Assembly: GCA_027622665.1 (NCBI GenBank)
Contig: JAQBYT010000002.1
Coordinates: forward strand, 1 to 64,000
Length of the DNA: 64,000 bases
From: Verrucomicrobiota bacterium
GTDB lineage: Bacteria; Verrucomicrobiota; Verrucomicrobiia; Opitutales; Seribacteraceae
Direction of reading: 5' to 3'
The notes below the pieces were generated by a model. That model was not told the DNA's origin and did no database searches. It saw only the letters and a list, made by a program, of their open reading frames with translations. Positions 3,926-41,705 of this stretch are shown in pieces. Position 1 is the first letter of the stretch. Every line of letters begins with the position of its first letter. The position numbers were made by a program, and so were the translations under genes.

Positions 3926-3973
3926 AGTGAACGCCGCATTCAGCGGCTTGTCCGCTGCAATGCTTTGTTATAC
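3926..3973 (-). repeat. attC site (short)
   Basis: Minus strand GTATAAC-AAAGC-ATT(G)CAGCGG-ACAAG-CCGCTGAAT-GCGGC-GTTCACT; hairpin with an extrahelical base. Confidence 0.85.
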
Positions 3974-5707
3974 CTGTCGTACCGCCTGAACAAGTTCAAG
4001 AAGCCTAGTTGGAATATCATCATCACTGAGATGCTGTCCGATAGCATTGGCAAATATAGGCTTACTCATTTTCTTGCCTCGCTGATTTAGGCTTCTAATT
4101 TCTTTTGAGAATTTTTTCCCATTCTCTGCACATTCAGCACGTAATTTTCGAATTGATTCTACAGACCATGTTTCTGGTATTTCTTTCTCATATGACGTGA
4201 GATACGCCGCCCAAGCCGTATAAAGCGCTTCATCAGTAAATGCGTCTTCAAACTCTTTAGTTCCCACAATATACTTTCTGTCATCTGGGATTTGAAGTCG
4301 GTCTATCAATTCTGTTAATTCTGGCGATGCGTCATTATCAAAAAGTAAATGCACTTTCTCTGGGCTATGTATTTCAAGAAGGGCCTTTGCGAAACCTGGT
4401 ATATTTGGTATGCCCTTGCAATTAATTATTTTTACAAGTGACGATGAAAGCGTCTCGTCAAATGCTTTAATGAAATATGACGGGATAAACTGTTCTTCAG
4501 TTTCTCCTTCGACAATAATTATGTGCTTGGCGAAAAACAAGTATGTATTCTCAATTCCTAACGTCCTGAGAATCCTATCCGCGTATTCAGGGTCAGATTT
4601 TATGTACTTAATCTTGCTATGATTATTGTTATTTTCTAAGAGCCTCAACTTTTTCGGCTTAACGGAATTAATTATAAATGGCGAATGCGTTGTTAATATA
4701 ACCTGACTACCGTTTGCGGCAAATCCTTTAACCGTATCTAAAAACTCTAGTTGTGCTTTGACATGAAGGTGGGTATCTGGCTCATCCAACAAATAGATGG
4801 TGGAAGCATCATGTTCTATTAACGATTGCTCCTTTTTATACTCCAAAAGAGCCATTGTGATACGCCTCTTGGTGCCATCCCCTTTTTTATCAATAGACAC
4901 CTCTTTGCCATGTTCCAAAAACTTGACTTTTGCATCAATATTCAAATCTTTCTTCTGATATATTGGCTCAATCTTTACCTCAGTTAAGTCTTTTAAAAAC
5001 AACTGCATTCTACTTAGAACTCCAGTATCTTTAATGCTCTGCTCAACGTGAGCCGAATAACTGTTTATTTTATCTTTTACAAACTCCTCAATGGTTTGGT
5101 CTTTAGTGATTTTTTCATCCCATATTTCACTTTGCTTACCTTTTAAGAAGACCTCTTTGAAAAATCAAGAAACATTCTCAAAGTGCCTACCATCAAGCTG
5201 AATATTATTAAACGAAGGGAATGAAGCACCGGCTATTTCAATATCAGTACCATCAAATTTTTCTAATATGGAAGTTTTAAGATTGGTAACATTGGAATTA
5301 GATCTAACGGTTAAGCCGACCGTTTTAGCTGTTTGCCTGACTTTCTCTTGCTCGCCAATATCATCCAAGTTCAGATTTTCATCTGTAAGCCAATTTCTTA
5401 TTTTTTCGATATATTCTTCTGTTGGGGTTGCAGTTAGGTTAGCTTCGATAATAGCGTCTTCATTTAGGTCATAGACTTTTCCAAACTTAAACTCCTCAGT
5501 ACCTAAACATATTTTTATTTGGGTACGGTCATGATTGAAGTCGTCTTTCTCAACTTTTCTTCCTTGTGTTACCACCTTCAATCATTCAATTAATGAAGAT
5601 TTTCCCGCATCGTTTTCGCCTACAATCACCGTCAAGTCATCTTCGAATCTTACTTCAAAACCCAGTAAGCATCTAAAGCCATCCACAGTTAAATCTTTAA
5701 TCTTCAT
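3968..5707 (-). pseudogene. OLD/AAA_15-family ATP-dependent nuclease (ABC ATPase + Toprim), two in-frame TGA stops
   Basis: One 580-codon frame: MKIKDLTVDGFRC..IVGENDAGKSS, LLDEPDTHLH, TTHSP, IIVEGETE, FDND; TGA at 5582-5584 and 5165-5167. Confidence 0.88.
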
Positions 5708-6473: not shown

Positions 6474-6540
6474 GCATAACGTAGAAGGTAGGCATAGAGT
6501 AGCGCCAGCGAAATCTATTGTCTATCCTGACTGGATCTAC
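6474..6540 (-). repeat. attC site with non-canonical R'' GTAGATC
   Basis: GTAGATC-CAGTCAGGATAGACAATAGA...TCTATGCCTACCTTCTAC-GTTATGC. Confidence 0.85.
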
Positions 6541-7028
6541 CCTTCATTTGGTCGAGTGGTTAAGTATTGTTTCCAGTCGTTAGATTCTGCCATCGCTTTT
6601 ATTTCTGAGTTTCTCTGCTGTAGAAATGATTTCATGTATCTGGTTAAGAATAAATTTTCAGCGAGACGCCCTAATATTCCAAGTGGAGCCTCGAACTCGA
6701 ATCGATCAGACATGATCGTATGATTCTCTTGGGTTTGAAATGTGTGTGTATGTCTCAACTTAGAGAATGCTCCCGAAATCATTTCGTCTTCAAATTCTTT
6801 TGGTTTATTCAAATGTGTCATTTTCACAGTGAGCTTCTGCTTGACCCCAAAGTGTGTAGCTTCCCAAGTTACCGTTTCATTTTCCTCCATCAGTCCGCTG
6901 GTCCTTCCTGCCACAGCTCGTTCTTTCGATTGGGAAGTAGAAGCGGTGTGCGCATCGACGCTCCTAGCGAGGTCAAAAACTCGCTCAATTGGAGCCTTAA
7001 TGGAAGTTGTGAGTTCAATGACGGGCAT
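6537..7028 (-). CDS. SRPBCC (START-like) family protein
   Basis: IELTTSIKAPIERVFDLARSVDAH...GAFSKLRHTHTF...FEAPLGILG. Confidence 0.88.
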   Translation of the reverse strand: MPVIELTTSIKAPIERVFDLARSVDAHTASTSQSKERAVAGRTSGLMEENETVTWEATHFGVKQKLTVKMTHLNKPKEFEDEMISGAFSKLRHTHTFQTQENHTIMSDRFEFEAPLGILGRLAENLFLTRYMKSFLQQRNSEIKAMAESNDWKQYLTTRPNEG

Positions 7029-7037
7029 TTTCTTTCT

Positions 7038-7093
7038 GTAGATCGTTTAAGTGTGCCGGGGCGTTAGCCGTTGCCACAACTGACTTGTTCGGT
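7038..7093 (-). repeat. attC site with non-canonical R' GATCTAC
   Basis: ACCGAAC-AAGTCAGTTGTGGCAACGGCTAACGCCCCGGCACACTTAAAC-GATCTAC. Confidence 0.85.
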
Positions 7094-17046: not shown

Positions 17047-18482
17047 TTGATTACTGCTATGACAATCGGAGCGTACTTCGTTTGTCTCTCTTCTTTTGCA
17101 GCCTTTGTGGTTGCTGGTCTCGCGGCCGCCGAGCCCATGCTGGCGATACCTGGCAAGGTGCTATACCAAAACAAGTTCGACAAGGCCCTCGGCAAACCAT
17201 GGAAAGCGGCCAAAATCAGAAACAATAGTGTTCACCACCCGGCCAAGGCCAAGCGGTGCATTTTTCTTATGATGGAAGAGGGGCCTTCCCCTCTCGATAC
17301 TTTTGACCCAAGCCCGAGCTGACCAAGCGCCACTTGCAGAAATTTTAGCGCAGTGGCGAACGGGAAAGCGCTATGTCTTCGGGCGAGCGCTACTTCGTCA
17401 AGAGCCCCTTCGATTTCATAAAGGCAGGCAAGTGCGGGGCCGATGTTTCTGCGGAATGGCAGCATCTCAAGGAACGGGTGGACGACATGTGCTTTTATCG
17501 CGGAGGCCAGGTTGAGTCGGTCAACCATCCGACCGCCTGCTATCATGTCAATACCGGCAACAGTTTCGGTGGCGATCCTGCGGTCGGAGCCTGGGTAACC
17601 TACGGGCTCGGTTCGCTGAATGACAACCTGCCCGGCTTCGTGGTTCTTCCCCGCACCAGTTATCCTGCGGTCGGAGCCTCCAACTGGTCCAACGGATTCC
17701 TGCCCGCCGATCACCAAGGCACACCCTTGCGCCCCGAAGGCTGCCCCATCCTCGACCTGCATGCTCCGACCGGGATGACCCGCAAGGACCAACGAAACAA
17801 TTTGGACCTGCTGGCCAAGCTCAACGGCAAGCATTTCAAGGCGCGTCCGCAACAGGGAGAGCTTGATGCCAGAATGTCATCCTACGAATTGGCTTACCGC
17901 ATGCAGATGGAAGTGCCCGGCATACTCGACATGAAAGGCGAAACCGAAAAGACTCGCGAGGCCTACGGAATCGACGACGCCAAGACCGATTCCTTCGGGC
18001 ACAAGTGCCTGCTCGCCCGACGCCTCATCGAGAAGGGGGTTCGCTTCGTGCAGGCCTATGCCGGCAACTGGGATAGCCACGATTACATCGCCCGGGCCCA
18101 CGGGTCTCTCATTCGCTCCGTCGACAAGCCCATCGCGGCGTTGCTTGGCGACCTCAAGGAACGCGGCCTGCTCAAGGATACTTTGGTGGTTTTTTGTGGA
18201 GAGTTCGGGCGTACCCCCGATAATGGGATCAGGGGAGGGGGCACAAGCTACGGGCGCGACCATAACGCCAAGGCCATGACGATGTGGTTTGCCGGCGGCG
18301 GTACCAAGGCGGGACCCGGCTACGAGCTGCCCTCCACTTTGCAGCCCTTGGCCAAGTTGAAGTCTGACTTCAACGTGTTTTCCAAGAGGGATAAGATCGT
18401 GTATTTTTTACCGCTGAAATTTGCAGAAAAGATATCCCGTATGAAAAAAAAGTATTTCTCTTCTGCATGTTTCTGCGTTTAA
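17047..18482 (+). pseudogene. chimeric remnant: exported-protein N-terminus, frameshifted DUF1501, short DUF1552 piece
   Basis: HHPAKAKRCIFLMME..DTFDP frameshifted to WDSH..GEFGRTP..GRDH; ends GPGYELPSTLQPLA. Confidence 0.75.
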
Positions 18483-18493
18483 TTCCATAAGGC

Positions 18494-20257
18494 ATGAATC
18501 GCTTCACCGCATGTTACTATTCTATCCTAACGGGCTTTTTATTGTTCCCGCTAAAATCCCATGCAGCAATAGAAAGCATCAAAGTCTCACCGCAAGTCGC
18601 CGGATTTATTGAAGCCAGGTGCGTGAAGTGCCACAATGAAAAGAAGCACAAGGGCGACACGCGTCACGACACTCTTCCAGGCAAAACCTTTGACGGTCTC
18701 ACAGCCCAGCGTTACCAGGATATTCTCGATGTGATCAACGCGGGTGAAATGCCGCCGGAAGATGTAAAGCAGCCATCGGACGAGGAAGTCACTGCCTTCC
18801 TTGATGCCCTGACCGTTAATCTTTCTGATGCGTGCAAGGCCTTGTCCGACACAGGGGGGCGTATGGTGATGAGACGGCTTAACCGTCGCGAGTACATGAA
18901 TACCATGCGTGAACTTCTGGGAACCGAGATCAAGGGCGATTCCGTACCTTCCGATGACAAATTCAAGGGCTTTGATACCGTGGGTTCCGCCCAGGAAATT
19001 TCATCCTTTCAACTGGAGAACTACCTGACCGAGGCACGCCTGACATTAAGAAGGGTTTTTGCCGCAGAAAAGGAATTTGTGCCATTAAAAATAACCCGTA
19101 ATGACCTCGGTCGCGCGAATGACACTCAACTGCTTGCTGACATACAAGGATGGAAGCGAGGCATTGCAGAGCTGGAACATATTCTGGCCACCACCACGAA
19201 AACCAAATTTGTGAAAAGCGACTTCAAGAATCTCAAAACTTATAATGTAAGCAGCCTCAACTCCTATCAGGAATACGGACTGGAAGAAGTCCGAAAATTG
19301 TTGAACGGTCATCAAGTCTACCTAAAGCGGGACACCGGATATCTCGAAGATGAATCGCTCAGAACAGGCTACGTCGCAAGAAGCAGCCACGCGATCAACA
19401 TTCCCTCCCATAAAATGCCGCACGGTAATTACTTATGCCGTATCGCTCTCGGTGCCGAAGGCGAGCAGACGGATGAAATGCTTGATGTCCGGGCATTCTT
19501 CGGTCGGCGAACCAACGGAGCACTATCTGACCCCGGCATGGGCGTGAATGATGAATATACTTTTAAAATCACAGGGCATGAAAAGTCACCACAGGTGATT
19601 GAAATACCGCTCACCATGTCGCCACATCACACCAGTCGAATGAGCATCAAGATCCGTGGAACTTTAGGCAAACATGCGCCGGTCAGCGGCCTTTCATCGT
19701 ACAAACAAATGTGGATCGACTGGATCGAATGGGAAGGCCCGATCGCCAATGTCGACGACTGGAATCCCGCCAAGGGCTACAATCTTATTTTCTTCAAGGA
19801 CTTTGGCGCGGATGAAAGTGATGACTACGCCCGCGAAATCTTGAAGCGCTTTGCCTTCGAGGCTTACCGTAGACAGGATGCCGATCAGGACTTTATAGAA
19901 AAACTTTTTGCTTTCTATAAACAAAGGCGCGAGCGCGGGATGAATTTTGAAAATGCACTCCTTGAACCGCTGACGGCGATTCTCGCATCACCCCGCTTCC
20001 TATATTTGTCGGAAAATGATATGGGAAGCGATTCCCGTGAACTAACTGATCGCGAACTGGCTATTCGACTGTCTTATTTTATCTGGAGCACACCGCCTGA
20101 TGAGGAACTCTACACCCTTGCAGCATCAGGCAAGCTGCGTGATGAAAAAATACTGACTGCCCAACTGGATCGCATGCTGGCATCACCCAAAACTGAAGCA
20201 TTTACTAACTCTTTCGTCGACCAATGGCTGGAACTGGAACGATTTGAGGGCATCTGA
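18494..20257 (+). pseudogene. DUF1592/DUF1587 protein, C-terminally truncated
   Basis: CVKCH, GEMPP, RRLNRREY, LAIRLSYFIWSTPPD; lacks DUF1588/DUF1585 tail. Confidence 0.75.
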
Positions 20258-24063: not shown

Positions 24064-24190
24064 GCCGAACGTTAAGCATGAGGTCCGGCTGACCGGGGCC
24101 GGGACTTCGTTGCAAGACAAGGGTTAGAATTCCGGTCAATCATTTGAACTCGGGGCGCGTCAGCCGTTGCTATTCATGCACTTGTTTCCG
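24064..24190 (-). repeat. attC site
   Basis: CGGAAAC-AAGTGCATGA..CAACGGCTGAC...GTCAGCCG..TCATGCTTAAC-GTTCGGC; similar to 33606-33730. Confidence 0.85.
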
Positions 24191-26437: not shown

Positions 26438-28268
26438 GTACGCCCGGCACGGGCGTCAACTGATGTGGTTGAAGTCCAATGTACATGGAACCTGTAAGTT
26501 GAATTCAACAATGAAAGTAAGTTATGACAAAGTACTAGCCAATGGCAACTGCGAAGTCGCGAGGCGTAGGGTAAATGACGCGTTTGCGCGACGGAAGTTG
26601 GTGTTCTTATCCGGGGAGGCCTCGCGGCGATGGCTTAGATTTGCCGTACGGTCGTCGCGACCGTCGCAGCAATGCGACGGCGGACCGCGAGGAGTCAGCA
26701 GAGGGCATAGTAGCGCTATGAAACGAGCCGGAAGTAGTTGCCGACGGGATGCCCGTCCAGCGAAGAAGTCCGGAGGTCTCACTTGGCGCGAAGGCCTGAA
26801 CCGATACGACGGGTCCTGGTCCGTTTGCTCGCCCTGCGGGTATGCCTTGCCAGAGGTAGCGCGGGAGCGGCGCGAAGTGGAGAGCGAGAATCCTGGATGC
26901 TACCTGATGGAAGCGATTTTGGATGCGGACAACGTATCCGAAGCGTGGAAGCGGGTGAAGGCCAATAAAGGAGCGGCAGGAGTCGACGAAGTGTCCATCG
27001 AGGATTTTCCGATCTCTTCCGCGCCGCTTGGCCGAGACTGCGCGAGCGTTTGGGGTCGGGCTCGTACGAGCCTGCTCCAACGCTTCGCGTGGAGATAGAG
27101 AAGCCCGACGTCGGTAAGCGTCTGCTGGGCATACCGACGGTTCTGGATCGCGTGATTTAGCAATCGATGGTAAGAGTGTTGGGTCCGATTCTGGATCCGA
27201 CGTTCAGCGAGAGCAGCTTCGGGTTTCGCCCGAAGCGCTCGGCCAGACAGGCCGTCGAGCAAGTTCGCGACATTATAAAGTCAGGTCGTCGCGTTGCGGT
27301 GGATTTGGATTTGTCCAAGTGTTCCGGTTCCTTCGGCCCGGTCTTGTCGCAAGCTCGGAACTTCGACCGCGTGGACCACGATATGCTGATGTCGCGATTG
27401 GGGCGAAGGATCCGAGACAAGCGCGTTTTGCGTTTCATCGGCAAGTACCTCCGATCTGGCGTTCAAGTCCAAGGGCGCCACCAGCGAACGGTGGAGGGAG
27501 TGCCGCAAGGCGGTCCTCTGTCGCCGCTGCTGGCCAATGTGATGCTCGACGATCTAGACAAGGAACTGGAGGAGCGCGGACATCGGTTCGCCCGCTACGC
27601 GGATGACTTCGTCGTATTGGTGAAGAGCATAGGCCTGGGGAGCGAGTGATGTCGAGCGTGCGGAGGTTCTTGGAGGAAAGGCTCAAGCTGAAGGTGAACG
27701 AGGAGAAGAGCAAAGTCGTGAAAGCGGCCGATCTCGAGTTCCTCGGATTCGTCTTCAAGGGCGGCAAGATCGTATGGAGCGAGAAGTCGCTGCGTACGTT
27801 TCAGGCGAAGATTCGCGAGCTGACGAGGCGCAGCTGCGTACGTTTCCATGGAGTGGAGACTTATGAAGCTCGCGCAATACATGCGCGGGTGGATGGGTTA
27901 CTATGCGATTAGCAAGACCTTCAAGGAAGTGCGTCGCATGGACCACTGGATACGTCGCAGAATCCGCTGCTGCTATTGGAAGCAGTGGAAGACGCATCGC
28001 AATCGCGTCCGCAACCTGATGGCTCTGGGGGTGGGGCGCCGCAATGCGATCATAACCGGAGTCACGAACCTGGGACATTGGAAGATGTCCAAGACTCCAG
28101 GAGTGAATCAAGCTCTATCGAACGCCTATCTCAAAGAGCAAGGTCTGCTGTCTTTGGAGGCTCTTTGATATCCGGCTACGGCCCGATAACATATTGGAAC
28201 CGCCCAGTGCGGATCCGCAAGCTGGGTGGTGTGGGAGCCGGGGGAGTTAATGCCCCTGGCTACCCGAT
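26438..28268 (+). mobile_element. group IIC(-attC) intron
   Basis: 5' GTACGCCCGGCACGGGCG; DV/DVI GAACCGCC..GCGGATCCGC..GGTGGTGTGGGAG..CTACCCGAT; antisense to cassettes, inside R''. Confidence 0.88.
26907..28168 (+). pseudogene. ltrA: group II intron reverse transcriptase/maturase (frameshifts and stop)
   Basis: AWKRVKANKGAAGVD, LGIPTVLDR, SFGFRP, GVPQGGPLSPLLAN, RYADD, GWMGYY; no endonuclease domain. Confidence 0.9.
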
Positions 28269-32666: not shown

Positions 32667-32737
32667 CTATAACGTAGAGGCTACTCAGCTCTGAAGCGCG
32701 GAGCGCGAAAGGGCTTGAGTATACTGACTGGATCTAC
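32667..32737 (-). repeat. attC site with R'' GTAGATC
   Basis: GTAGATC-CAGTCAGTATACTCAAGC...GCTGAGTAGCCTCTAC-GTTATAG. Confidence 0.85.
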
Positions 32738-32804
32738 GCTTCATTTGGTTGAGTGGTTGTGGTTGTGGTTGGTCTTTGGTCCATTCGTCTTCTTTTCATT
32801 CTTT

Positions 32805-32996
32805 CTAGGAAAATCCAATCGTTCCCCCAAGGCCAAAGATCACACCAATTACGTATCCGATCAGATAACCGGAAAATCCTGAATCTATCGTGCTTCCAAG
32901 CATGATTGCTCCGAGAATTCCAAGTGCCTGCGAGATGATGAGTAAAATGGTGAGATTCGCGCGGATTCGTTCGAAGACTGTTTTTCTCTTTTCCAT
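32805..32996 (-). CDS. small two-TM membrane protein (cassette)
   Basis: 63-aa hydrophobic ORF starting just inside cassette boundary. Confidence 0.6.
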   Translation of the reverse strand: MEKRKTVFERIRANLTILLIISQALGILGAIMLGSTIDSGFSGYLIGYVIGVIFGLGGTIGFS

Positions 32997-33004
32997 TTTA
33001 TTCT

Positions 33005-33073
33005 GTAGATCACCGAAGTCACCGGATTTGAAGAGGGAAGGGATGAGAATTCCGGTGCACTGTTTTGTTATTT
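33005..33073 (-). repeat. attC site with R' GATCTAC
   Basis: AAATAAC-AAAACAGT(G)CACCGGA...TCCGGTGACTTCGGT-GATCTAC. Confidence 0.88.
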
Positions 33074-33153
33074 ATAAGAAGACGAAACTGAAATCATTCA
33101 GAATAATCGTCTTTATTTAGATTAAGAATTCAATTCCGCTCGTTTGTTATGCC

Positions 33154-33609
33154 TCACTTGAGTTTCCAAGTCACAGTCTTGAGTCCGTAGTAAACGCTGT
33201 CTTTCTCAATGTTGGTACCTGGAGGCATCGGCATACCCTGCGGAACGCCATCGGTGCCTTGCTTGTCCTAGTCCCAGATGAACATTGGCCATCGCATTTT
33301 TACCACCTTGCCAGTGACAACAATGACTTGGCCGACTTGGTCTAAGGGAATTGCCACCTTGTCGCCTAATAGAAAGATGGTTTCGTCGCCAACTTTCACA
33401 GCGGGATCGTTTTCCTTGATGTGAGGCGAACTCGAGGCAATACCTTCGAATTGATGTCGCGAGCCAACCAATCGCTCGAGTGTGGGGTTGCGAACATTAA
33501 CCGGGGCCGCTTCGGCTGCGCCAGAACCAGAAGAACTATCCGATGAACAGGAGGCTAGGAACAACACAATAACTGTGGACAGTATTCTCATAGGGATCTC
33601 GGTAGTCAT
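33154..33609 (-). pseudogene. cassette lipoprotein with in-frame TAG
   Basis: LASC lipobox; TAG at 33268; frame continues to TGA just before R'' GCATAAC (33146-33152, attC truncated). Confidence 0.72.
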
Positions 33610-33730
33610 AACGTCAAAGTGAGGCACGGCTGACCGGGAGCGTGCATCCGATGCGGGACAGGGGTTGCAATTACGGTGCATCTTTCGAGTCGGGGCGTGT
33701 CAGCCGTTGCTCTCCATGCACTTGTTTGAC
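33606..33730 (-). repeat. attC site
   Basis: GTCAAAC-AAGTGCATGGAGAGCAACGGCTGAC...GTCAGCCGTGCCTCACTTTGAC-GTTATGA. Confidence 0.85.
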
Positions 33731-34768: not shown

Positions 34769-34844
34769 GTCCAACGCTAAGCTGTGGGACTGGTTTGCGA
34801 GTGCTAGCGAGCAATACCAGTTCTACAAGAGCGTCTTGTTGGCT
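34769..34844 (-). repeat. attC site
   Basis: AGCCAAC-AAGACGCTCTTGTAGAACTGGT...ACCAGTCCCACAGCTTAGC-GTTGGAC. Confidence 0.9.
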
Positions 34845-35497
34845 CATTTTTTGAAGTTGATTCTAAGATCATCATGTGGGATGTCGCGCGCCTTGACCAA
34901 CTCTGAGTAGCGAAGGCCGCGCGTAAGTGATGAAATAAGTGAATCCCCAGCTGCCCGGAGGATACAATCATTATATAGAGTTTGAGAGTCGGTGAAGTAG
35001 AGCTCGATGTGATTCAGTACGCCTCGCAAAGACTCAAGTGCAGTCTCTATCTCTTCGCGCGAAGGTCCAGCGCATGATACGACCGATGTTTCTAGCTTTG
35101 TCGCGAGGTCGAGGTGTGCGATAGCCTTATTCCTCCGAGTGCGAACATTCTCTGTATGGCTCTCGAAAATATCAATCAATGGTTCCAACTCACTCGCAAG
35201 GGTCGCCTCGTTGACCTTTCGCACCTCAACCAAGAGTCTTCGAAGAGTGAGATTTTTGCGTGCACCGGATCCGGCAGGATCCCCGAGCCGACTTATCGAA
35301 AGTTGTATGTCGTTAAGCATCATGCCTTGAATCATTGAAAAGGCAGTAGATGCGGAACGATTCAATATGCTGACTCGGTGTTCATCGGTTCCAAACAATT
35401 GGCGATACAAAATCCACCGTCCATGGGTCCACATGACTTCGTCTTTGATGGATCTCCAGATTTCGCTAAGTTCGCTAGGGATTGTCTTTGTAGTCAT
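34844..35497 (-). CDS. AbiU2-like HEPN domain protein
   Basis: WILYRQLF, ISRLGDP..NLTL, RNKAIAH (Rx4-6H). Confidence 0.75.
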   Translation of the reverse strand: MTTKTIPSELSEIWRSIKDEVMWTHGRWILYRQLFGTDEHRVSILNRSASTAFSMIQGMMLNDIQLSISRLGDPAGSGARKNLTLRRLLVEVRKVNEATLASELEPLIDIFESHTENVRTRRNKAIAHLDLATKLETSVVSCAGPSREEIETALESLRGVLNHIELYFTDSQTLYNDCILRAAGDSLISSLTRGLRYSELVKARDIPHDDLRINFKK

Positions 35498-36957: not shown

Positions 36958-37234
36958 GCTCATGACTTCAAGCCATCTTTACGGGTTTAATATTCGACAT
37001 AAATCCGTCCTGGAGGATCCTGAGTTGGTGCCAAGTCCTTCATGAAACACCAACTTGAAATAATAAAATTTGCATTTCAAAAGGGGCTTTTTGAAAATTC
37101 AATTGCTTATCACTAAAATTAAATTTCCCCCTTTTAACTACTATTGAATTATTCTTTTTTACATGTAAATAATGGATACTATAAGTTCTGCAAAATGAAA
37201 TGAACGAATCCAAAGCATTGAATGTCTAATCAAC

Positions 37235-37855
37235 TTGATGACTGAAAAATCGAATTCTACAATTGAAAGGCTTCGCAAGCCAATTTCACGACTAATCGCA
37301 TTCATGCTGATTCTTATGGCTCTGCTTACAGTGCCAATAAATTTTGAAGACGGAGTTCATGAAGCTTTGGAGATTTTCGGCTATTTTTTACTGCTTACGG
37401 CAGGACTTGGTAGAATTTGGTGCTCTATTTACATTGCTGGCAGGAAGGATAAAATATTATGCACAGATGGTCCGTATTCAATTTGCAGGAATCCACTTTA
37501 CCTTTTTTCCTTTATAGGGGTCATTGGTGCATTTTTGGCATTTCAAAGTATTTTGCTCACAGTCATGGCATCTGCTATCTACTTATTGTATTATCGATTC
37601 GTTATTAAGAGTGAAGAAATAAGGCTGCTCGATATTTTTAAAGTTTCGTTTTCAGAATATATCAGCACTACCCCCCGATTTTTCCCAAGATTTTCTTCAT
37701 ATCAGAGTAGTGTAGCCGAAAGAATTACCTCAACAAAAGTTATCGAAAGGGGCTTGAGAGAAGCCGTTTGGTTTTTTATAGCTATAGCATTGATTGACAC
37801 AATTGAAGTCATTCACCGCCAAGGTTTCATGATATTGGCGACACTGCCATTCTAA
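37235..37855 (+). CDS. isoprenylcysteine carboxylmethyltransferase/PEMT family protein
   Basis: GPYSICRNPLY, EE..L..F...Y..TPRFFP. Confidence 0.88.
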   Translation: MMTEKSNSTIERLRKPISRLIAFMLILMALLTVPINFEDGVHEALEIFGYFLLLTAGLGRIWCSIYIAGRKDKILCTDGPYSICRNPLYLFSFIGVIGAFLAFQSILLTVMASAIYLLYYRFVIKSEEIRLLDIFKVSFSEYISTTPRFFPRFSSYQSSVAERITSTKVIERGLREAVWFFIAIALIDTIEVIHRQGFMILATLPF

Positions 37856-37857
37856 AG

Positions 37858-37938
37858 GCAGAACAAGGCAGTGGAGGACAACTCCGTTACGCGCTCCGCA
37901 CTCCACGCTCCACTCCATGCCTACCTTTGACGTTATGT
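37858..37938 (+). repeat. attC site
   Basis: GCAGAAC-AAGGC...CCTTTGAC-GTTATGT; R'' matches GTTCTGC at 37185. Confidence 0.85.
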
Positions 37939-37989
37939 AAAAGTAAAAAATGAATTGTCTTATTTATGTTATTGTGTAAGTTCCTACAC

Positions 37990-38190
37990 ATGCCTACCAA
38001 TTTAGCAATAGACGATAATTTACTTGTAAAAGCCTTGAAGGTCAGTGGTCTTAAAACGAAAAAAGATACTGTAAATCAAGCCCTTAAGGAATTTGTTCTG
38101 AAAAGAGAGCAGAAGAAGATTTTAGACTTTTTTGGAGTTGTTGATTATTATGATGATTATGACCCGAAGGCAGATCGAAGGAAATCGTAA
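37990..38190 (+). CDS. vapB: VapB-family antitoxin
   Basis: MPTNLAIDDNLL..GLKTKKDTVNQAL; TGTGTA/TACACA palindrome upstream. Confidence 0.88.
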   Translation: MPTNLAIDDNLLVKALKVSGLKTKKDTVNQALKEFVLKREQKKILDFFGVVDYYDDYDPKADRRKS

Positions 38191-38588
38191 TGGTTATTGT
38201 AGATTCTGATGTGTGGTCAGAGGTATTTCGATCTAGGGCAGGGAAAGCGTCCAAGTATTTCGATAAGTTAGCGAAGTTAATTGAGGATGAAGACGTTGTT
38301 CTTTTGGGAGCGATACGCCAAGAGGTTTTATCAGGTATAAAGTCTAAAGAACAATTTGATTCCCTAAAAAAGGTTTTGAGATCATTTCCAGATGTTTCGT
38401 TACCTGAAGCAATTTATGAGATGGCAGCATCATTTTATAATATTTGCCGAAGTAATGGAGTTCCAGGATCGTATGCCGATTTCTTGATATGTGCTTGTAG
38501 TGTGTTTTATAAATTAGAGATTTTATCGAATGATAGAGAATATATTCATTATTCAAAACATATTCCTATCAAGGTTTGTAAGCTATAG
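38190..38588 (+). CDS. vapC: VapC PIN-domain toxin
   Basis: VIVDSDVW, QEVLSG, DFLI, LSND. Confidence 0.9.
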   Translation: MVIVDSDVWSEVFRSRAGKASKYFDKLAKLIEDEDVVLLGAIRQEVLSGIKSKEQFDSLKKVLRSFPDVSLPEAIYEMAASFYNICRSNGVPGSYADFLICACSVFYKLEILSNDREYIHYSKHIPIKVCKL

Positions 38589-38594
38589 GAATCA

Positions 38595-38725
38595 GCATAA
38601 CAATTGGATGGAGGGTAATCCCCAACACGGTTTTAATTATATTGAAGTATTGGTTCCCTATTACAGTTTTTGAAGATTTGAAGCGATGGAGTAAAGTTGG
38701 GGATACCTCATCCTGTGCGTCAGGT
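38595..38725 (+). repeat. attC site (R' GTCAGGT)
   Basis: GCATAAC-AATTGGATG(G)AGGGTAATCCCCAAC...GTTGGGGATACCTCATCC-TGTGC-GTCAGGT. Confidence 0.85.
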
Positions 38726-38774
38726 ACGAAAAAAAGTTTACAATGTGCTACATTTTGCTACATATCTTTATTGC

Positions 38775-38993
38775 ATGAGCACCGTAATAAGAATTTCCGA
38801 TCACTTGGCAAAAGAAGCGAAGACCAGATCAAAGGTAGAGCACCGCTCGATGACTTCACAATTGGAGTATTGGGCGACCATCGGCAAAACCGCAGAAGAA
38901 AACCCTGATTTACCGTTCAGTTTCATCAAGGAAACACTTCTGGCGATCGAGGAAATGAAGGAATGCCCAAAGGAGGAATATACCTTTGGGTGA
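38775..38993 (+). CDS. ParD-like antitoxin
   Basis: VIRISDHL..RSMTSQLEYWATIGKTAEENPDLP. Confidence 0.85.
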   Translation: MSTVIRISDHLAKEAKTRSKVEHRSMTSQLEYWATIGKTAEENPDLPFSFIKETLLAIEEMKECPKEEYTFG

Positions 38994-39273
38994 AAGGAAG
39001 ATTTTTGTCTCATCTGCCTTCGGGCGAAAAATTAAAAAGCTGAAGAAGCGGGAAAAGAAGGAACTTGATGACGCGGTTCTAGATCTTTCGAACGATCCAA
39101 GTGTTGCAGAAGAGAAAGTTGGCGATCTAGCAGGAGTTTCGGTCTATAAGTTTAAGATCAATAAACAGTCGGTTCTATTGCCTTATGCATACGACGAGAA
39201 TGAAATTAACCTCCTGACATTTGGATGCCATGAGAACTTCTATCGGAATCTGAAAAAATACAAAAAAGCCTAA
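38986..39273 (+). CDS. RelE/ParE family toxin
   Basis: F.RKIKKL..GDLAGV.VYKF..GCHENFY. Confidence 0.85.
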   Translation: MGERKIFVSSAFGRKIKKLKKREKKELDDAVLDLSNDPSVAEEKVGDLAGVSVYKFKINKQSVLLPYAYDENEINLLTFGCHENFYRNLKKYKKA

Positions 39274-39322
39274 CCAGACGGAGAGAGCAAAACCGTTGGC
39301 GCACTCATCCTCCACATTATGC
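39268..39322 (+). repeat. degenerate attC site
   Basis: GCCTAAC-CAGACGGAG...CTCCAC-ATTATGC. Confidence 0.6.
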
Positions 39323-39344
39323 GAGGGAAAAGAATCAAACTATA

Positions 39345-39887
39345 AGAAGAAGAAAGAAACACACGCTCTCAATCCTTGGGACGATGCTGATTTTTGTGCT
39401 ACTGTCCGGACTGCTCGTCGGATGTATGACATACCGAAAATAACAGTGGTTCGGCGGTATGACCACGATTCAACTGGAGGATGGAACGAAGGTTGGCTTG
39501 TGGTTTGACCCTGCCGACCGTCGACCGGACATACCTCTATTGGGTCGTTATTCGGTCAGTACACCACCCTATGCGCTACAGATTTATTTTCCGGATTTCG
39601 ACCCCGCTTGGGAATCCGCTGAGATTGATGAAGTGATCGTAGCATACAATGACGGCACCACGGATAAGCGAACGGACGGTGGCGTCGTGTGGCGGATAAG
39701 AAGTAAAGAGATGACGCTATATAGAGGACCACTTAAAGACCTCGTGACGCGTCACGAAAGCGGCAACATCACTGTAACGGGTAGTATTTCGGCGAAAACT
39801 GGCAAGAAAACTGGCTTTTCCTTCTCGCACAAATTTGAGGCAGAGCCTAAGGATTCTGGGATCGCACCTTACTGGTCTGGTGGGTGA
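39345..39887 (+). pseudogene. cassette lipoprotein with in-frame TAA
   Basis: LLSGLLVGCMTYRK*QWFGGMTTIQ in frame with the 142-aa ORF. Confidence 0.65.
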
Positions 39888-39907
39888 AAAGGCAAGAAGG
39901 GTAGCCC

Positions 39908-39965
39908 GCATAACGAGCAGGTGCTGCCGGACGGCTAATCGCCGCCGCAGACCTATGTGCTCACG
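39908..39965 (+). repeat. attC site (R' GCTCACG)
   Basis: GCATAAC-GAGCAGGT(G)CTGC..CGGC...GCCG..GCAGACCT-ATGT-GCTCACG. Confidence 0.78.
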
Positions 39966-40006
39966 GAAAAATTGACATTATGGCGTTTTAGCGTTTTGGT
40001 GTTTTA

Positions 40007-40228
40007 ATGAAAAGAGCAACCGTGTATTTTGAAGAAGATCTCCACAAGGCCCTAAAAATGAAGTCTGCGGAGATTTCGACGCCTGTCTCCGACCTCGTGA
40101 ATGATGCGGTGAGGTCGGCGCTATTTGAAGATGCAGAAGATCTCGAAGCATTTAAAGAAAGAGAGAAAGAGCCGGTGATCGATTTTGAGTCTTTCGTCAC
40201 GTCTCTGAAAGAAGATGGAAAGCTTTAG
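40007..40228 (+). CDS. CopG/RHH antitoxin
   Basis: KRATVYFEEDLHKALK..SDLVNDAVR..EDAEDL; TTGACA at 39971. Confidence 0.85.
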   Translation: MKRATVYFEEDLHKALKMKSAEISTPVSDLVNDAVRSALFEDAEDLEAFKEREKEPVIDFESFVTSLKEDGKL

Positions 40229-40475
40229 AATCGTAATCAAGAAGTCTGCGGCGAAGGAAATCGAAAGAATCGAAAAGAAAGATAGAATTCGCATCATCGA
40301 GAAGATCCGATGTTTGGCGAGTGATCCACGTCAATTCGGCAGCAAGAAACTTTCGGGCCAAGAAAAATACCGGATTCGCCAAGGGAATTACAGGATCTTG
40401 TATCAGGTTATTGATGACGAATTAATCATCAACGTCGTCAAGGTCGGGCATCGGCGAGACATCTACGATAATTAA
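40215..40475 (+). CDS. relE: RelE family toxin
   Basis: KSAAKEI..PRQFGSKKLSG..YRIRQGNYRILY..VGHRRDIY. Confidence 0.9.
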   Translation: MESFRIVIKKSAAKEIERIEKKDRIRIIEKIRCLASDPRQFGSKKLSGQEKYRIRQGNYRILYQVIDDELIINVVKVGHRRDIYDN

Positions 40476-40530
40476 TGTGGCCCAGTCTGAGGCGGCAACG
40501 GCTAACGTCCGCCACGTTTCTGCGTTGAAT
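40476..40530 (+). repeat. degenerate attC site
   Basis: TGTGGCC-CAGTC..GGCGGCAACGGCTAACGTCCGCC..CTGC-GTTGAAT. Confidence 0.6.
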
Positions 40531-40539
40531 GAAAAGAAT

Positions 40540-40576
40540 TTGACAGGGCGGGATATGCGTACATTATCCTGTACAT
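40540..40576 (+). promoter_or_regulatory. yefM-yoeB promoter/operator
   Basis: TTGACA; CGTACA and TGTACA 12 bp apart as in YefM operators; abuts ATG. Confidence 0.65.
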
Positions 40577-40834
40577 ATGAATGCAATCACTTACACTGCA
40601 GCAAGAGAAAATCTAGCATCCACGATGGATCAGGTTTGTCTCGATCGAGATCCTGTGATCATAACACGCAAGCGCGAGCAATCGGTCGTCATGATCTCGC
40701 TGGAAGACTACGAAGCACTTGAGGAAACCGCATACCTTCTACGCAGTCCTGCAAACGCGAAACGATTGATTGCCTCAATTGAAGCAGCCGAACAAGGAAA
40801 TGTAGTGGAAAAGGAAATCGAGCTCATCGAATGA
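40577..40834 (+). CDS. yefM: YefM/Phd antitoxin
   Basis: YTAARENLASTMDQV..PVIITR..EETAYLLRSPANAKRL. Confidence 0.93.
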   Translation: MNAITYTAARENLASTMDQVCLDRDPVIITRKREQSVVMISLEDYEALEETAYLLRSPANAKRLIASIEAAEQGNVVEKEIELIE

Positions 40835-41088
40835 ATTTCACATTCACTCCACAAGCTTGGGAGGATTACCAATTTTGGCAAAAGACTGATAAGAAAATAC
40901 TGAAAAGGATTCATTTACTGATTCAGGATATCCTGCGATCACCACAGGAAGGCATCGGCAAACCAGAGTCATTGAAACATAACCTAAGCGGATACTGGTC
41001 ACGACGTATCACGGAAGAACACAGAATCGTTTATAAGCAATTCGAGCACGGGATCACATTCGTCCAGATGCGATACCACTATAAATAA
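40831..41088 (+). CDS. yoeB: YoeB/Txe toxin
   Basis: AWEDYQFW..GIGKPESLKHNLSGYWSRRITEEHR..RYHY. Confidence 0.95.
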   Translation: MNFTFTPQAWEDYQFWQKTDKKILKRIHLLIQDILRSPQEGIGKPESLKHNLSGYWSRRITEEHRIVYKQFEHGITFVQMRYHYK

Positions 41089-41131
41089 TTGAGTCGAAGC
41101 AAGCGGAGTTTGCAACGGCTAGCATCGCGCC

Positions 41132-41161
41132 AAATAGTACTTGTAAGCCTTGCAAGTGGAT
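41132..41161 (+). repeat. 30-bp direct repeat, copy 2
   Basis: AAATAGTACTTGTAAGCCTTGCAAGTGGAT (2 mismatches to copy 1). Confidence 0.85.
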
Positions 41162-41198
41162 CCCTCTTTCTTTAATAAAGGGACAAGTTACCCAACCT

Positions 41199-41705
41199 GT
41201 GGTCGAAATGGAACCTAGATGGAAATATATTCTAATCACTGCGGCGTTTGTCAGCGTAGCGTTAGCCGTGCTTTACCCCATTCGCGGGTTTTTTCCGCCA
41301 TTCTACTACGAACAGTACAACGCCTTTAAAGACAGGCTGGAGACGATCGAAGACTTGCAGATTCGAGATTCTTGGCAACACAAGGATATCCGTCTGGAAG
41401 ACTGCGGATTCGATGTTGAAATCGATGACCGAAACGCCTCTTTGACGTTCACAGATCACCAAGACTGGGTTGCCCTGTTTTCCAAAATCGACGGAATCCG
41501 CATCTCAATGAAAGATCATCAACGTTTGGTTACTTGCAAAGAAATGAAATCCGCCGGCATGGAAATCGATGGCCTCCGGGACGTCCTTGAGAATCTTGGC
41601 TCAGTCATTGAATTTTGTTCGAATCAAAAGAACCCCATCCTTGTGCCCGATGCGGAATACGATTACTGGGATCACTTGAACTATGCTCAAATCCAATTCC
41701 AGTAA
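41199..41705 (+). CDS. hypothetical protein with N-terminal TM helix
   Basis: 168-aa ORF with hydrophobic anchor. Confidence 0.6.
   Translation: MVEMEPRWKYILITAAFVSVALAVLYPIRGFFPPFYYEQYNAFKDRLETIEDLQIRDSWQHKDIRLEDCGFDVEIDDRNASLTFTDHQDWVALFSKIDGIRISMKDHQRLVTCKEMKSAGMEIDGLRDVLENLGSVIEFCSNQKNPILVPDAEYDYWDHLNYAQIQFQ

Follow-up and report, generated by a model that had tools for sequence, protein, structure and literature searches.

An end module with a conserved tail and a predicted bridge frame in GAT-core integron cassettes of Opitutales

We analyzed a 64,000-nucleotide window (positions 1 to 64,000 of contig JAQBYT010000002.1, GenBank assembly GCA_027622665.1) from a Verrucomicrobiota bacterium, in which two cassettes, A and B, carry unrelated genes on the same end sequences. 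Both belong to a family in which a conserved tail can precede a GAT-core attC site. The tail carries an ATG whose predicted reading frame runs through the attC hairpin and stops in the L' region, and this bridge frame is, with a probability of roughly 0.6 as judged from sequence comparison, the reason that the tail is kept. B keeps the full frame; in A it is cut short.

Tolerance of GAT cores in engineered sites, and short open reading frames (ORFs) at attI1 and in attC of class 1 integrons, have been published. In the marine lineage described here, a triplet usually taken as near-invariant has two natural values, and tools that demand AAC/GTT may therefore undercount GAT cassettes. The bridge frame is a natural, frame-locked candidate for translation across attC, which bears on the expression of long arrays regardless of cassette order. 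The recurrence of a single end module across 31 clusters of unrelated cargo, together with a homolog of the A protein on another scaffold, provides a handle on cassette genesis.

Two cassettes with unrelated genes and a common end

The preliminary description of the window had reported that A and B share their start and nearly all of their end, carry different genes and lie behind different attC sites, and all of this was borne out. The heads (33001-33011 and 7034-7044) are identical, and the 11-mer is absent elsewhere from the 4.52-Mb genome. The ends (32724-32758 and 6527-6561) differ at 2 of 35 positions, and this 35-mer occurs at two places only in the genome, even when 7 mismatches are allowed. 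The shared stretch of about 20 bp upstream of attC corresponds to 21 of the 35 bases, which precede R''; the remaining 14 comprise R'', the spacer and the start of L''. As the shared head consists of the 7-base R' box and an A-rich leader common among the cassettes of the lineage, its sharing is less surprising than that of the tail. No BLASTP alignment was obtained between the 63-aa ORF of B, which has no Pfam match, and the 163-aa ORF of A, which matches PF10604 (SRPBCC-type) and has a homolog in genome G608 that equals a protein named from Coraliomargarita; the source genome belongs to the same order as G608, likely Opitutales. The AAC-core attC sites upstream of A (at 7093) and of B (at 33073) differ.

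Table 1. Positions of the features of cassettes A and B in the window
Feature	Positions	Strand	Description
Cassette B	32673..33010	-	338 bp; head, 63-aa gene, tail, GAT-core attC to crossover G
Head of B	33001..33011	-	G of upstream attC, rest of R' (GAT core), A-rich leader
Cargo of B	32805..32996	-	63-aa predicted membrane protein, without Pfam match
Predicted frame in B	32734..32799	-	21 codons; start 5 nt past cargo stop, end = TAG in R''
Tail of B	32738..32768	-	conserved, A/C-rich; ATG at -7 from R''
Predicted bridge ORF over attC of B	32685..32744	-	19 codons; stop in L' region
attC of B	32667..32737	-	R'' 32737-32731 (ATC core), 5-nt spacer, L'' 32725-32718, L' 32685-32679, 5-nt spacer, G at 32673, then GTT head of next cassette
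attC upstream of B	33005..33073	-	AAC core
Cassette A	6480..7043	-	564 bp
Head of A	7034..7044	-
Cargo of A	6537..7028	-	163-aa SRPBCC-type protein (PF10604); frame runs through tail to TAG in R''
Tail of A	6541..6561	-	conserved
Tail-started frame of A	6515..6547	-	10 codons; early stop inside stem
attC of A	6474..6540	-	R'' 6540-6534, L'' 6528-6521, L' 6492-6486, G at 6480
attC upstream of A	7038..7093	-	AAC core

Read on the minus strand, both cassette ends have an R'' of 7 bases in which ATC replaces AAC, a 5-base spacer, an L'' of 8 bases, a variable stem, an L' of 7 bases, a second 5-base spacer and the crossover G. In A and B, ATC/GAT stands in place of the conserved AAC/GTT triplet, and each head is fully complementary to the R'' of its own cassette. 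In the array, each of the two has an AAC-core site before it and a GTT-head cassette after it. The GC content of the cassettes is 43-45%, versus 52% for the genome. Homologs of the B protein with 48-60% identity have the same end codon. A frameshift in B, without which the 63-aa ORF would continue as far as the TAG in R'', was rejected, because four homologs share the stop codon. Upstream of B (window 33005-33160, minus strand), a truncated attC-like start lies at about 33150, and after it come a short AT-rich piece and a second attC, which is complete; this stretch is a fused or partly deleted cassette.

A and B are almost certainly integron gene cassettes. In 61 of 73 distinct unfiltered GTAGATC-type hits, the L boxes pair at no fewer than 6 of 7 pattern-free positions (bottom-strand G.T wobbles counted), compared with at most 9/73 for slid partners and a mean of 16.7 (maximum 26) for shuffled partners. 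These 61 sites contain 25 different L'' sequences, with seven pairs around one unpaired, extrahelical base, which on the top strand is G in 31, C in 15, A in 11 and T in 4. The cognate head was present in 37 of 40 sites with 700 nt of flank. When the 5' end of a cassette was compared with its own R'', the combinations were GAT/ATC in 64, GTT/AAC in 60 and mixed in 7 of 131 cassettes (agreement 124/131). The attC sites of A and B, folded singly, were no better than shuffles (z -1.36 and -0.49).

The layout R''-spacer-L''...L'-spacer-R' with one unpaired L'' base, crossover after G, a head that complements its own R'' and arrays without a nearby integrase are features of integrons and CALIN elements (IntegronFinder, PMC4889954). 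The present cassettes differ from that description in that many of them have ATC/GAT where the "conserved triplet" AAC/GTT is expected, so that a central-base mismatch occurs at about half of the junctions, and in that one core type has a conserved upstream tail. In Delta-attI-type cassettes the attC is replaced by an attI fragment (PMC12901181), whereas A and B keep a full attC; by inspection, the tail is not similar to attI-like sites.

Comparison of arrays indicates that the GAT-core family moves as a unit, with the predicted crossover after the G. The same 351-nt GAT cassette, identical in both copies, was found in an array and as the first cassette behind an attI-like site beside intI (G400), and five near-identical cassette pairs lie behind different upstream sites. 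For B itself, movement is suggested only by a low-depth contig joint in run X16 (depth 3.6, 90% threshold, possibly from another organism), where its head lies behind a different attC arm. Reads of run X7 span the stretch but may be its source, and two X7 joints with a side shorter than 30 letters were left out of account.

The source genome (G000, 93.5% complete) yielded no TIGR02249 match above the cut-off, and tblastn for an integrase gave partial matches only (27-34%). No complete integron, with intI beside attI and an array, is present in it, and the arrays of A and B, with a minimum of two attC sites but no intI nearby, are therefore of the CALIN type. Complete integrons are present in relatives, e.g., at L129 and L318. 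Since no intI was found in the source genome, IntI would act in trans or would have acted before the arrays reached it. The best integrase-like match there (L001, G000:C5:58101-58613) is a 205-codon N-terminal piece with 33% identity, below the IntI cut-off.

A widespread cassette family and its two core types

The preliminary description had further proposed independent insertions of a fixed scaffold with varied cargo, built in a donor lineage, and wider searches agreed with this. The GTAGATC core with its head was found on 73 cassettes in 62 cargo clusters (BLASTP, one link added by hand; one row of the table, L186_2429, has a mis-assigned head), and the tail, called as a match at 9/11 or better, on 37 of these cassettes in 31 clusters. 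None of 85 AAC sites and none of 38 other ATC sites carries the tail. Cargo Pfam matches include SRPBCC, DUF4177, DUF6804, DUF6694 and DUF6869; with A set apart, 6 of 50 cargo proteins match at E 0.001 or better, so BLASTP is the basis for calling the cargoes unrelated, and too few of the short membrane proteins may have been merged.

A tail-free pattern matched 13 times among 185,579 species genomes, and metagenomes yielded 90 stretches with it. Nine of the 13 are real sites, all titled Verrucomicrobiota and eight of them Opitutales; the four that failed the L-box check came from other phyla. A 26-mer had no match in 75 other genomes of the source genome's own family. Viral contigs gave at least 120 matches to a 14-mer, none of which, among the matches listed, has the tail or the right spacer. 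Searching 101 genomes with the tail alone returned 17 matches, versus 5 for a reversed control; these matches are followed by GTAGATC in 14 cases, by one-base variants in 2, by an unrelated sequence in 1 and by an AAC core in none.

A and B are the only two copies in their genome and both lie on one contig, as expected if they were related by local duplication or conversion. This relation is nevertheless extremely improbable: their hairpins come from different families, homologs of B with the same head and tail occur in other genomes, and homologs of A elsewhere (P0002, P0115) end in the same tail-encoded residues. An unbiased search of the 101 genomes for homologs of B found five, of which three lie in GTAGATC cassettes, one has its tail fused to the next gene and one is a relic. 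In the fused case (L354:1690-1760), the tail adjoins the start of the next gene directly and the attC is lost.

The VCRs of Vibrio are a taxon-specific attC family. The present family resembles such families in that, within one lineage, unrelated genes carry attC sites of uniform sequence (Ghaly et al., PMC8352920); it differs from them in that the conserved part reaches outside attC and in that GAT and GTT cassettes have hairpin bodies in common. Verrucomicrobia are not mentioned in the text of Ghaly et al. (PMC8352920).

Among 312 de-duplicated cassettes, the core is AAC in 165, ATC in 146 and ACC in 1. In a less biased set of 116 cassettes, from regions not picked by GTAGATC, the counts are 69 AAC and 47 ATC, and GTAGATC is the commonest single core (8, 4 of them tailed). 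Identical hairpin bodies were found with both GAT and GTT cores.

An integrase of altered specificity had been suggested for the GAT scaffold. Such an enzyme is very probably not needed, and several observations speak against it. One array of a large G408 contig holds 7 GAT cassettes interspersed with 7 GTT cassettes. Junctions between neighbors are random, with 147 matched versus 157 expected and a central mismatch in 164/311. The lysine equivalent to K160 of VchIntIA, counted on an alignment with 2A3V, is kept in 18 of 18 integrases of carrier genomes; the lysine of this type makes the only base-specific contact of the triplet (PMC2811028). Published tolerance of GAT points the same way. With IntI1, triplet position 2 was dispensable when matched, and an engineered attC-GAT recombined with attI1 at 1.9 times the wild-type level (s.d. 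0.9; PMC2811028, Table 4), whereas a mismatched GTT/ATC site gave 6e-6 versus 2.2e-3 (PMC2811028). The natural cores share with the engineered attCaadA7-GAT (Frumerie et al., PMC2811028) the matched T-to-A change at triplet position 2, with which that site recombines at or above wild type; they differ in being natural, abundant and present in mismatched junctions, which were poor with IntI1 there.

Given that drop with IntI1 (PMC2811028), the 164 mismatched junctions suggest that the enzymes may differ from IntI1, and the integrases of carrier genomes are long, with open frames of 434-485 codons. A separate GAT-specific integrase, or a tail-binding host factor, is still very unlikely: in addition to the points above, a cassette with a GTT head and an ATC R'' has been duplicated at an attI-like site (1485/1486 nt identical), and half of the GTAGATC cassettes have no tail. 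From the mismatched junctions and this duplicated cassette we infer tolerance rather than a new specificity, and relaxed tolerance of the central mismatch in these integrases is possible. GAT cassettes are likely to be moved by ordinary integron integrases. A literature search that covered a minority of subscription journals returned no report of a natural GAT/ATC attC family.

The two copies of the duplicated 1486-nt cassette lie at L308:15187-16672 and 18356-19841 and contain a 397-codon frame, transposase-like by eye. The idea that mismatched junctions act as a brake on excision was unsupported, given random junctions and the duplication of a mismatched cassette. A shared attI-like motif, picked by eye, precedes first cassettes both beside and far from intI and ends in AT-rich bases, ACT or ACTT, and then G (L129, L130, L134, L140, L141, L219, L233, L237, L300, L302, L305, L307-L309, L312, L314, L318, L323, L324), which suggests dispersed attI-like sites served in trans.

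The start codon of the tail and the frame across the hairpin

The tail is far more conserved than the silent sites of the gene to which it is attached. Between B and three homologs, fourfold sites were identical at 7/17, 9/21 and 9/21 (41-43%), compared with 20, 22 and 23 of the last 25 tail bases (80-92%); a fourth homolog has lost the tail. An ATG lies at -7 from the core in 35 of 36 tail sites versus 1 of 124 AAC sites. By start-context score, 20 of the 35 tail ATGs lie above the 95th percentile of internal ATGs, as do 66% of real starts; the tail ATG of A scores 1.41, below the threshold of 2.07. In the source genome, starts show no enrichment of Shine-Dalgarno motifs.

The frame of this ATG is open across the hairpin to a stop in L' in 31/36 tailed sites and 21/38 tail-less GTAGATC sites, compared with 7/47 other ATC sites and 4/124 AAC sites. 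Where any L' stop is present, it is in the ATG frame in 31 of 31 tailed sites versus 4 of 23 AAC sites. The stop of the tail-started frames lies 9-15 bases before the G, and 11 L-box and length classes are represented among the bridge-frame sites. Early stops interrupt the frame in 3 of 36 sites, A among them. The distance from the bridge stop to the next start is 16-28 nt in 27 of 34 cases; the gaps of A and B themselves are about 50 and 85 nt.

To separate the frame from the core, we used a set defined by one hairpin family only, which has 93 matches in 28 of 101 genomes; 69 passed a geometry and flank filter and 62 remained after removal of near-duplicates, with one chance-looking match omitted. 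Where the hairpin body measures 54, 57 or 60 nt, an ATG stands in the fitting frame in 39/47 sites, versus 4/15 for other bodies (52 or 59 nt), and in the shifted frame in 1/47 versus 9/15. Without the GTAGATC sites, the fitting-frame counts are 24/30 versus 4/15. The ATGs lie at -1, -4, -7, -10, -16 and -19. In 13 of the 15 sites of other length, an ATG or the cargo frame enters the frame that fits the L' stop, with an earlier stop intervening in one. In this set, the ATG frame follows hairpin length modulo 3.

Across all 312 cassettes, L' stops were commoner, whatever the class, in frames that are entered than in frames that are not: 27/32 versus 3/64 in tailed cassettes, 17/134 versus 11/361 in AAC cassettes, and 16/26 versus 10/79 and 28/70 versus 16/167 in two further classes. 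These comparisons mark the bridge as a putative lineage-wide tendency, of which the tail appears to be the most conserved start module. Part of the frame signal is explained by inheritance of hairpins, because the frame fits in 16/32 GTAGATC sites that lack both the tail and the -7 ATG, versus 31/36 for tailed sites (p 0.002, a value that, like the Fisher values in general, is overstated since the sites are related).

The same data bear on another explanation, in which the TGA at -6, the TAG in R'' and the L' stop together close all three frames for genes without a stop of their own, and the ATG is a by-product of an A before TGA. Fifteen cargo clusters do end at -6 (9) or in R'' (6), and the ATG overlaps TGA in 29 of 47 cases, so that such ATGs could be stop-codon by-products. 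Frame openness as such is not enriched, early stops falling in 4/32 entered versus 12/64 non-entered frames; the enriched feature is stopping in L'. However, none of 37 tailed cargoes is read in the third frame, and the L' stop would therefore stop nothing without the ATG. At sites picked by the upstream half of the tail, the ATG is invariant (20/20) and the TGA is lost in one, and 16 tailed clusters with their own stop further upstream still keep the tail. We therefore regard the stop function as an improbable reason for retention of the tail and favor the bridge frame.

In the mechanism that we propose for the bridge frame, ribosomes that leave the cargo gene, or load on the unstructured A/C-rich tail, would restart at the tail ATG, read 17-30 codons through the attC hairpin and stop before the crossover point, to be released about 16-28 nt from the next start. 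Untranslated mRNA would be shorter, and polarity on downstream cassettes would be reduced, in whatever order they stand. Short ORFs in attC can relieve a hairpin block on ribosomes (review PMC8876359), and longer untranslated stretches lower downstream expression (PMC11511950); in E. coli, removal of attC mattered for a minority of cassettes only (PMC11511950). RNA run X18 has essentially no cover over B and carries no weight either way on expression.

The predicted frame resembles ORF-11, ORF-17 and ORF-18 of attI1 and the short ORFs of attC (Hanau-Bercot 2002 and Jacquier 2009, via PMC8876359) in being short and in ending close upstream of the next gene; as with ORF-11-type frames (PMC8876359), it is translation, not the peptide, that would benefit the gene that follows, through termination and re-initiation. 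It differs from them (PMC8876359) in that it sits in a mobile cassette end, is conserved over many cargoes, lacks a Shine-Dalgarno motif, stops in L' before the crossover and co-varies with hairpin length, and in that it is known from sequence alone. No natural ORF crossing attC and no frame-locked bridge was reported in the literature search, in which a minority of subscription journals was covered.

Two structural explanations of the tail were rejected. As the left arm of a second attC it does not fit, because its AAC is unconserved (G at -13 in 16/20) and the spacing is unfit. Pairing of R'' with the TCTAC spacer as a lock, found in the lowest-energy folds of A and B, was dropped since the search patterns had demanded that spacer; where the tail alone served to find a site, the spacer is a different one. 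Pairing of the tail with the hairpin or the head was seen by eye in A and B only. At window position 32753, the run X16 version of the B tail is 6 bases (one repeat unit) shorter, with all frames kept.

Possible origin of the tail, and other elements of the arrays

The preliminary description had taken the tail as a trace of cassette making. A passive trace would not account for the conservation of the tail or its frame lock to the L' stop; a step of building or swapping is still needed for the graded tail lengths on unrelated genes. Unrelated cargoes share the tail to graded depths of about 16 to 100 nt, and a tail-sharing score of 10 or more against a non-homologous cassette was obtained for 38/73 GTAGATC cassettes versus 6/79 AAC controls; two of these six are one duplicated cassette and four are borderline A-rich ends. 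In 17 of 37 tailed cassettes, the cargo frame has no stop of its own and ends in the tail or in R''. A 75% homolog of the A protein lies on a tail-less GTT scaffold (L344), and several of its homologs have no visible cassette ends. Graded tails, frames ending inside the tail and an A homolog elsewhere thus argue for some step that joins genes to an existing end module.

These observations would also suit a building scar, in which genes were grafted onto an existing GTAGATC cassette end and the tail is functionless founder DNA kept uniform by conversion, and so would the tie of the tail to one core (14 of the 17 tail-only matches). Such a scar does not predict an ATG frame that tracks hairpin length, at six positions and in tail-less cassettes as well, and the B family, with protein identities of 41-71%, has retained its scaffold, in keeping with inheritance under selection. 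A functionless scar is therefore unlikely as the whole explanation. Grafting and the bridge frame can both hold, the one as origin and the other as the reason for retention.

A broader proposal combines the two: in Opitutales, new cassettes would arise by grafting of genes into a ready-made terminus, made up of tail, GAT-core attC and head, which would supply a ribosome bridge along with the recombination site; graded tail lengths would record the capture junctions, and integrases indifferent to the central base would allow the two core types to exist side by side. We consider this rather unlikely; if true, end-module grafting would be a readable record of cassette making. Short GTAGATC cassettes of 225-256 nt with no convincing gene and with an inverted repeat inside were found at L201, L237 and L133, and motifs of their 3' parts recur in L226 and L131, in the long tails.

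Further elements were noted in and around the arrays. A group II intron with an RVT_1 match (window 26438-28268, plus strand) lies antisense in the R'' box of an attC; its removal restores an AAC-core attC as the empty site, and its reverse transcriptase frame is in several pieces. We take it to resemble the group IIC-attC introns. At L129:4578-4631, at a contig end, a group II intron-like 3' end adjoins the R'' of a GAT cassette whose L140 homolog is intact. Defence-type cargo includes a fragmented OLD-like ATPase/TOPRIM gene with which the first array ends (3968-5581, minus strand) and an AbiU2 (HEPN) gene that heads the second (34844-35497, minus strand). Two related long attC sites of the second array (families D6 and D10) lie at 24079-24187 and 33620-33727. 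A third cassette array (37166-41705, plus strand) contains small gene pairs, toxin-antitoxin-like by eye, and several degenerate attC sites.
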